A DNA stretch of 1,167 nt, taken from the sequence record X03899.1. One strand, written 5' to 3'. Position 1 is the stretch's first letter. Every line of letters begins with the position of its first letter. Below are positions 200-863 of this stretch, piece by piece. The position numbers and the translations under genes are program-made. The DNA comes from a phage. The notes beneath the pieces were generated by a model. It worked only from the letters and a program-made list of their open reading frames with translations. It did no database searches and was not told the origin of the DNA.

Positions 200-216
200 C
201 TCCCAAGCTCAGGGAG
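200..216 (-). repeat. Hairpin-motif copy H1, inverted relative to the other copies: 5-bp stem and 7-nt loop; minus strand reads CTCCC-TGAGCTT-GGGAG
   Basis: Plus strand 200-216 is CTCCC AAGCTCA GGGAG; the stem 200-204/212-216 is perfectly complementary. The reverse complement carries the same CC-TGAGCTT-GG core as the copies at 494-510 and 845-863. Confidence 0.6.
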
Positions 217-290
217 AAACAGGTGGTTTAAGCCCCGATACGACCTTGACCATCTGTTATCTAGCACGAAAAACCGTCGGTCAGGATCCA

Positions 291-313
291 GCTCGATTAT
301 GGAATCACTTGAT
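291..313. repeat. Direct repeat copy B2: GCTCGATTATGGAATCACTTGAT
   Basis: Near-identical to 121-144, in the same orientation, about 170 bp downstream. Confidence 0.6.
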
Positions 314-345
314 ACTACCCCTAAAGAGGAGTAGTTAAATATATT

Positions 346-387
346 TATAATATTGTTCTTTAATTCGTAATTCGTTGACGCAAAAAC
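346..387. repeat. AT-rich conserved block A (TATAAT at 346-351, tandem TAATTCG x2 at 361-374, TTGACG at 375-380); possible promoter or 5-prime leader element
   Basis: Roughly 75-80% identical by manual alignment to 1105-1146. It lies about 14 bp upstream of the start of unit I. Hexamer spacing does not give a canonical sigma70 -35/-10 pair, so a promoter role is unproven. Confidence 0.45.
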
Positions 388-410
388 TTTAAAGAACCTG
401 AACCATGAGC

Positions 411-431
411 CACTATCTTAGCTTGATAGTG
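411..431 (+). repeat. Hairpin-motif copy H2: 7-bp stem CACTATC/GATAGTG, 7-nt loop TTAGCTT
   Basis: Perfect 7-bp inverted repeat 411-417/425-431 around loop 418-424 TTAGCTT. The loop matches the family consensus T(G/T)AGCTT; the stem sequence is unrelated to the other copies. Confidence 0.6.
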
Positions 432-433
432 TT

Positions 434-450
434 GGCGGCACATTTCCGCC
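434..450 (+). repeat. Companion hairpin H2b: GGCGG-CACATTT-CCGCC (5-bp stem, 7-nt loop)
   Basis: Perfect 5-bp GC-rich inverted repeat 434-438/446-450 around 7-nt loop; starts 2 nt after H2. Confidence 0.45.
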
Positions 451-493
451 CCAAGAGGGTAATATGATTGGCTCGTTTTTAAACCACCCAACG

Positions 494-510
494 TGTCCTG
501 AGCTTGGACA
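494..510 (+). repeat. Hairpin-motif copy H3: 5-bp stem TGTCC/GGACA, 7-nt loop TGAGCTT
   Basis: Perfect complementarity 494-498/506-510 around loop 499-505. Relative to the copy at 845-863, the two outer stem pairs are changed on both strands (T-A to C-G, G-C to T-A), so pairing is kept. Confidence 0.65.
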
Positions 511-516
511 TTGGAT

Positions 517-531
517 ACCAAATTTTCTGGT
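517..531 (+). repeat. Companion hairpin H3b (weak): ACCA-AATTTTC-TGGT (4-bp stem, 7-nt loop)
   Basis: 4-bp inverted repeat 517-520/528-531 around 7-nt loop, 6 nt after H3. An alternative pairing, CCAAAT 518-523 with ATTTGG 538-543, is also possible, so the fold is ambiguous. Confidence 0.3.
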
Positions 532-545
532 CACGAGATTTGGTC

Positions 546-569
546 AACTCGATCGTTGGGAATCATTGG
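546..569. repeat. Diverged B-box copy B3 at the 3-prime end of unit I: AACTCGATCGTTGGGAATCATTGG
   Basis: Shares CTCGAT...GGAATCATT(G/T)G with B1/B2. The equivalent position in unit II (896-909, AACTCGATTAGCC) keeps only the CTCGATT part. Confidence 0.4.
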
Positions 570-759
570 TAATATATGAAGAAATTATCATACCTGAAAG
601 TTTATTTCCACTAATCATGATTTGAGGCGGTAATGAAGAAAAAGTAAAAAAGGTATTACACGTTCATTCCTAAAACTACATAAGAATGGATTTGCAAACA
701 GTGAATGATGATTAGCTTTATGAAAGTAAAGCTTTAGGAGATAATTTTACCTTCGCCCA

Positions 760-776
760 CGTCCTTAGCTTGGATG
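760..776 (+). repeat. Hairpin-motif copy H4: 5-bp stem CGTCC/GGATG (one G-T wobble), 7-nt loop TTAGCTT
   Basis: Pairs C760-G776, G761-T775 (wobble in RNA), T762-A774, C763-G773, C764-G772; loop 765-771 TTAGCTT. It occupies the position in unit II that H2 occupies in unit I. Confidence 0.55.
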
Positions 777-800
777 GAGAAAGATCGAATACTCTGATCG

Positions 801-819
801 CTAGAGATGGTCTCTCTAG
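801..819. repeat. 19-bp perfect palindrome CTAGAGA-TGGTC-TCTCTAG (7-bp arms, 5-nt centre)
   Basis: 801-807 is the exact reverse complement of 813-819. It lies in unit II where unit I has the unrelated hairpin 434-450. Confidence 0.4.
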
Positions 820-844
820 ATTGGGCGTTAACAAACCAGAGGTT

Positions 845-863
845 ACTTCCTGAGCTTGGAAGT
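845..863 (+). repeat. Hairpin-motif copy H5: 6-bp stem ACTTCC/GGAAGT, 7-nt loop TGAGCTT
   Basis: Perfect complementarity 845-850/858-863 around loop 851-857. It occupies the position in unit II that H3 occupies in unit I. Confidence 0.65.

Follow-up and report, generated by a model that had tools for sequence, protein, structure and literature searches.

Five hairpins with a near-invariant loop read as phage T5 tRNA T-arms when the letters of the window are reversed

What keeps a seven-nucleotide loop nearly invariant on five stems of differing sequence within about 1.2 kb of phage DNA? The question arises from the window analyzed here, a stretch of 1,167 nucleotides in its entirety, where the loop TKAGCTT closes hairpins at 205–211 (H1), 418–424 (H2), 499–505 (H3), 765–771 (H4), and 851–857 (H5). 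A first-pass annotation had described an 11-mer family with a fifth copy of the loop, and the letters bear this out: CCTKAGCTTGG matches exactly four times (203–213 on the minus strand; 497–507, 763–773, and 849–859 on the plus strand) versus 0.00 expected, with no copy in any of 200 dinucleotide-preserving shuffles, while the 7-mer TKAGCTT occurs six times in the window versus 0.33 expected. The perfect or near-perfect inverted repeats with differing stems that had been reported around the loops are likewise present: CTCCC/GGGAG, CACTATC/GATAGTG, TGTCC/GGACA, CGTCC/GGATG (with one G.T pair), and ACTTCC/GGAAGT. The claim that H3 and H5 differ by changes on both strands with pairing kept was also correct, the double compensatory change being TGTCC..GGACA versus CTTCC..GGAAG. 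A sixth copy, TTAGCTT at 712–718, had been missed and lies outside any hairpin of the TKAGCTT type; near it, at 714–733, is an unrelated AGCTTTAT/ATAAAGCT-like hairpin.

The hairpins are not isolated. Alignment of the five units, with H1 taken on the minus strand, revealed that each hairpin is the first arm of a unit of ~75 nt, a four-way cloverleaf whose 7-bp closing stem covaries. In window order, a unit consists of a closing strand, the TKAGCTT hairpin abutting the closing stem, a short linker, two further hairpins (the second with a 5-bp stem and a 7-nt loop whose sequence is unrelated, the third with 4 bp and a loop of 8–10 nt), the dinucleotide AT, and again a closing strand. The closing stems covary fully (CCCAACG/CGTTGGG, GAGGTTA/TAGCCTC, CCTGTTT/AAGCGGG, TGAGCCA/TGGCTCG, and CGCCCA/TGGGCG). 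The stem-covariation check that had been proposed, performed with RNAalifold on the five units in window orientation, predicted 17 pairs; compensatory changes occur in 15. The view that a conserved loop on covarying stems marks a folded RNA under selection thus held, the hairpins being tRNA T-arms as set out below; the alternative offered alongside it, recognition of single-stranded DNA hairpins by a protein, found no support.

The arm lengths and linkers of the units match those of the tRNA cloverleaf in the opposite order. A tRNA on the reverse complement was considered and rejected: there the arm order is right but the invariant bases are wrong, with A instead of U33 and AAGCTCA rather than TTCGANT. 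This combination led us to suspect a plain reversal. Read simply backward, the second-hairpin loops take the form YU-NNN-R-N (CTTTTAA, CTTGCAA, TTTACAC, TTTGGGG), TKAGCTT becomes TTCGAKT, and CCTGAGCTTGG becomes GGTTCGAGTCC, a canonical T-arm. The loop, which the first-pass annotation had not recognized from any RNA family, is therefore the T-psi-C loop TTCGA(G/T)T (the eukaryotic B box, GGTTCGANTCC) written backward, and it had been missed because the letters of the window run 3'→5'.

ARAGORN identified five tRNAs in the window reversed without complementing, all five with an encoded CCA and each with a 7-bp acceptor stem, U33, a purine at position 37, and a TTCGAKT T-loop, versus none in 200 shuffles of the reversed window. 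A BLAST search of phage genomes showed reversed positions 3–907 to be 99.2% identical to Escherichia phage T5 (NC_005859.1). For pairwise alignment we used a T5 locus spanning NC_005859.1 30440–34342 as the reverse complement (L049). Reversed positions 3–907 corresponded to L049 1501–2403 with 898 of 905 positions identical, and reversed positions 908–1167 to L049 2662–2403 on the other strand with 260/260 identical (100%). The matched region is the T5 tRNA region at about 31.7–32.8 kb of NC_005859.1/AY543070.1, annotated with tRNA-Pro, fMet, Lys, Val, Ala, and Leu, P13a, P13b, T5.065, T5.066, and RNA2H; gene order agreed with this reference except for the inverted terminal 260 bp. The five tRNA genes were confirmed on the T5 locus by both ARAGORN and Rfam RF00005, all of them above the gathering score of 29 bits (43.6–69.2 bits). 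We conclude, with a probability of about 97%, that the window is a stretch of the T5 tRNA cluster in 3'→5' letter order whose first 260 bases are also inverted, and that the five hairpins are the T-arms of tRNA-Ala(UGC), tRNA-Val(UAC), tRNA-Lys(UUU), tRNA-fMet(CAU), and tRNA-Pro(UGG). There is no evidence against the tRNA identity, and the biology of the window is already known, the T5 tRNA genes having been annotated and experimentally studied.

T5 has a complement of about 23 tRNAs, and four of the five complete genes in the window stand in mirror order. The gene for tRNA-Pro(UGG), including its encoded CCA, occupies 835–911 with its 5' end at 911, and its T-arm at 846–862 is H5 (ARAGORN, reversed 257–333; T5 tRNAP(UGG), L049 1755–1831; RF00005, 55.4 bits on L049). 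Initiator tRNA-fMet(CAU) lies at 749–828, has a 1:72 mismatch (T.T), and contributes H4 as its T-arm at 760–776; ARAGORN called it Met(cat) at reversed 340–419, and it corresponds to T5 tRNAfM(CAU) at L049 1838–1915 (43.6 bits). The gene for tRNA-Lys(UUU) at 483–560, with H3 as its T-arm at 494–510, was found at reversed 608–685 and matches T5 tRNAK(UUU) at L049 2104–2181 (69.2 bits). That for tRNA-Val(UAC) spans 402–475 (reversed 693–766; T5 tRNAV(UAC), L049 2189–2262; 54.9 bits) and has its T-arm at 413–429. H2 had been described as a 7-bp stem at 411–431; the pairing is real, but the biological stem is 5 bp long and two of the pairs are fortuitous.

The fifth gene, tRNA-Ala(UGC) at 153–227, lies within the inverted 260-base segment and carries H1 as its T-arm at 200–216. 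ARAGORN placed it on the complement of reversed 941–1015, and it is 100% identical to T5 tRNAA(UGC) at L049 2555–2629 on the opposite strand (54.9 bits). All five genes are on one strand in T5, and H1 appears on the other strand of the window because of the 260-base inversion. The first 28 nt of a sixth gene, tRNA-Leu(UAG), occupy 233–260 (L049 2635–2662) and are cut at the inversion junction.

Suppressor tests of these tRNAs are mentioned in the T5 record. A cloned T5 fragment, 31885–32870, carrying the Pro, fMet, Lys, and Val tRNAs partially rescued a tRNA-deletion mutant from the PARIS defense system, and T5 tRNA-Lys alone, which resists the AriB nuclease, restored infection under PARIS (PMC11464382).

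In the true direction, the T-arms read GAAGG-TTCGAGT-CCTTC, GTAGG-TTCGATT-CCTGC, ACAGG-TTCGAGT-CCTGT, GATAG-TTCGATT-CTATC, and GAGGG-TTCGAGT-CCCTC, and the anticodon loops of the reversed window read TTTGGGG, CTCATAA, CTTTTAA, TTTACAC, and CTTGCAA. In tRNA numbering, the loop runs T54-T55-C56-G57-A58-(G/T)59-T60, between a CC/GG that represents G52-G53 paired with C61-C62; G53:C61 is found in all five copies and G52:C62 in four, with A:T in Val. The true T stem is 5 bp in every copy, so that the pairs in excess of this (two in H2, one in H5) are fortuitous, where the pairing runs on into the adjacent acceptor strand and variable loop. Across the T stems, 25 of 25 positions are paired, one as G.U. 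In the ARAGORN models of the reversed window, all five genes have a 7-bp acceptor, a 2-nt linker, a D arm, a 5-bp anticodon stem with a 7-nt loop, a variable loop, and a 5-bp T stem whose 7-nt loop hairpin abuts the 3' strand of the acceptor. The conserved tRNA nucleotides U8, A14, G18-G19, U33, purine 37, G53, T54-T55-C56-R57-A58, and C61 are present.

The known role of the T-arm accounts for this pattern. Together with G53:C61, the T-loop (T54-psi55-C56-R57-A58) docks on the D-loop residues G18-G19 and so builds the elbow of the L-shaped molecule. The U54 methyltransferase and the psi55 synthase act on it to make m5U54 and psi55, and RNase P, EF-Tu, and the ribosome recognize it. The remaining four T-stem pairs need only to pair. 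The loop is thus near-invariant because of elbow docking and enzyme recognition, and the stems covary because four of their pairs have only to pair and because they come from different tRNA species. The invariant loop on covarying stems noted in the first-pass annotation is exactly this T-arm pattern in the five T5 tRNAs.

The reversal also makes other T5 features readable. Promoter P13b (TTGCTT-N17-TATAAT once reversed; annotated at L049 2268–2342) lies at 322–396, and P13a (TTGCTA-N17-TATAAT once reversed; L049 1512–1586) at 1080–1154. A repeat TAATTCGTA...TCGTTGAYGYAAAAA at 360–386 and 1116–1145 corresponds to these two near-identical promoters in reverse. The longest open reading frame of the window as given encodes 53 aa of nonsense, and T5.065 and T5.066 show only upon reversal. 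The former (55 aa, window 561–728) has a translation at reversed 440–607 identical to that of T5.065, and the latter (52 aa, window 916–1074) has two transmembrane segments according to the annotation. The sixth TTAGCTT copy is a chance TTCGATT within the T5.065 coding sequence and belongs to no tRNA.

The inverted segment (window 1–260, L049 2403–2662) meets the remainder of the window at 260..261, and this junction falls inside the stable RNA2H of T5 (172 nt, annotated at L049 2364–2535). RNA2H is consequently split in the window into a 5' part at 261–300 and a 3' part at 2–133, with tRNA-Ala and the tRNA-Leu fragment between the halves. It folds with a 10-bp terminal stem (z = −3.0) and has no Rfam family. 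An apparent direct repeat GCTCGATTAT(C)GGAATCAYTTGAT at 116–145 and 286–313 represents the two complementary strands of this terminal stem, which look like direct repeats because the inversion flipped one of them. A third similar copy at 546–570 is formed by the 5' end of tRNA-Lys and the upstream ACTAAGG; the 5' end of RNA2H is thus tRNA-like. Outside the window, stable or "tRNA-like" RNAs are annotated in T5 at L049 394–466, 1260–1505, and 3699–3903 (RNA3, RNA2, RNAIV, RNA1, and RNAI). RNA1 gave a sub-threshold tRNA match of 24 bits, and the other four matched no Rfam family.

Could the 260-base inversion genuinely exist in a T5 (laboratory) strain as a structural variant, the DNA otherwise being T5 tRNA DNA? 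In its favor, the inverted segment matches T5 at 100% identity and its junction is clean. Against this, the 260/261 junction is missing from all 50,697 phage records searched, among them four of T5 and hundreds from T5-like phages, and from every IMG/VR contig; the inversion would split RNA2H and part tRNA-Ala from its promoter; and the inverted segment runs right up to the window boundary, as would a sub-fragment in the wrong orientation. We regard a real inversion as improbable. If it were real, T5 could do without RNA2H and could express tRNA-Ala from the opposite strand. The inverted segment is probably a sub-fragment mis-oriented in the source record.

Small differences from T5 bear on the nature of that source. 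All five substitutions change T to C and are confined to a stretch no more than 20 nt from one end (window 1147, 1149–1151, and 1159), and a 2-nt insertion (TC) relative to the T5 reference is located in the D-loop of tRNA-fMet (window 812–813). The clustered substitutions and the insertion look like read-end or old-method sequencing errors rather than divergence. Taken with the inversion, they indicate that the source was not simply the T5 reference genome. They suggest instead that a T5 fragment was sequenced independently, probably at an earlier date and with errors, and that part of it was placed in the wrong orientation. A literature search for the first papers on this fragment shed no light on the origin of the record.

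The window in its given orientation behaved very differently in searches. ARAGORN found no tRNA in it, and an Rfam scan at E ≤ 10 returned no tRNA match and nothing better than E = 5; its two snoRNA-like matches were due to chance. One candidate considered here, a C/D-box snoRNA (RF00348, snoR9_plant) at 701–760, scored 18.5 bits (E = 6.2) versus a gathering score of 43 and is a spurious hit on reversed T5.065 coding sequence. BLAST gave no match among 50,697 phage or 72,556 plasmid records, and pairwise alignment with the T5 locus yielded just chance matches of 10–35 nt. We also scanned IMG/VR (2.9 million viral contigs) and 100,044 species genomes for the unit pattern AAACCA-N10-CCTKAGCTTGG. 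The 3 and 45 single matches, respectively, were taxonomically scattered, with no further similarity and no extra copies; they are chance matches in about the expected number. The searches for relatives failed on the string as given, whereas the reversed string matches T5, on whose locus RF00005 matches the five genes.

Both outcomes follow from the letter order. String reversal sends a pair i–j to N+1−i and N+1−j, so that hairpins, stem lengths, and covariation are kept, whereas directional motifs, open reading frames, promoters, and homology are abolished. The stems and their covariation survived in the window, but motif, homology, tRNA, and ORF searches failed because the letters are reversed. 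To our knowledge, no biological process writes a sequence backward without complementing it, and the orientation is accordingly a property of the data. We infer that both the reversal and the 260-base inversion are artifacts of the record or of a pipeline rather than biology.

This leaves very little room for taking the window as genuine DNA in its given orientation, with the hairpins forming a new structured RNA or single-stranded DNA family whose UKAGCUU loop is bound by an unknown protein. The conserved loop, the covarying stems, and the absence of a fitting Rfam family for the forward string speak for such a family. They are outweighed by the 99–100% identity of the reversed string to T5 over all 1167 bases, with five canonical CCA-bearing tRNAs (none in 200 shuffles), by the lack of any process known to us that reverses without complementing, and by the scattered single chance matches of the forward pattern across the 100,044 genomes and 2.9 million viral contigs. 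Just as implausible is a mobile or dispersed palindromic repeat of the REP, MITE, or integron attC type spread by copy-and-paste, which the several copies in 1.2 kb, one in opposite orientation, might bring to mind, since a loop kept while the stems differ is the opposite of what copying produces, each hairpin belongs to a full cloverleaf that has an anticodon of its own, and the orientation of H1 stems from the inversion.

No copies outside the tRNA genes with conserved stems and target-site duplications were found, and membership in REP, MITE, or attC families was rejected, as the stems differ and the pattern scans gave single chance matches without similarity to the window. The earlier judgment that neither copy-and-paste repeats nor double-stranded DNA operators fit a loop kept on differing stems was sound. 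Other candidates considered for the units and rejected were a CsrB-like protein-sponge RNA, an integron attC array, REP/MITE elements, organellar hairpin repeats, a tRNA-derived SINE with pol III boxes, and permuted tRNA genes.

The biological novelty of the window is nil, and its value is a methodological lesson in quality control. A backward sequence keeps hairpins and covariation and loses motifs, and can therefore produce convincing false calls of novel structured RNAs that lie beyond database search. As a cheap guard, any strongly structured region that lacks homologs altogether can be reversed and checked again for tRNAs or with Rfam or BLAST. A public record would deserve a flag if it proved to be the source and to run 3'→5' with a mis-oriented sub-fragment.

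Among known systems, the window as given behaves exactly like the reversed decoys that serve as negative controls in sequence searching, in which composition, inverted repeats, and hairpin potential are kept while homology and motif matches are abolished; here the reversal may be deliberate or an error of the source record. Compared with the tRNA T-arm (RF00005; B box GGTTCGANTCC), a 5-bp stem with the 7-nt loop TTCGA(G/T)T, the hairpins show no difference once their letters are put in the true order. Relative to the T5 reference, the window differs in its mirror letter order, the inverted 260 bp, the five T→C substitutions, and the 2-nt insertion in the fMet D-loop, and after reversal its gene order, its stable RNA, its small ORFs, and P13a and P13b agree with those of the T5 tRNA cluster.
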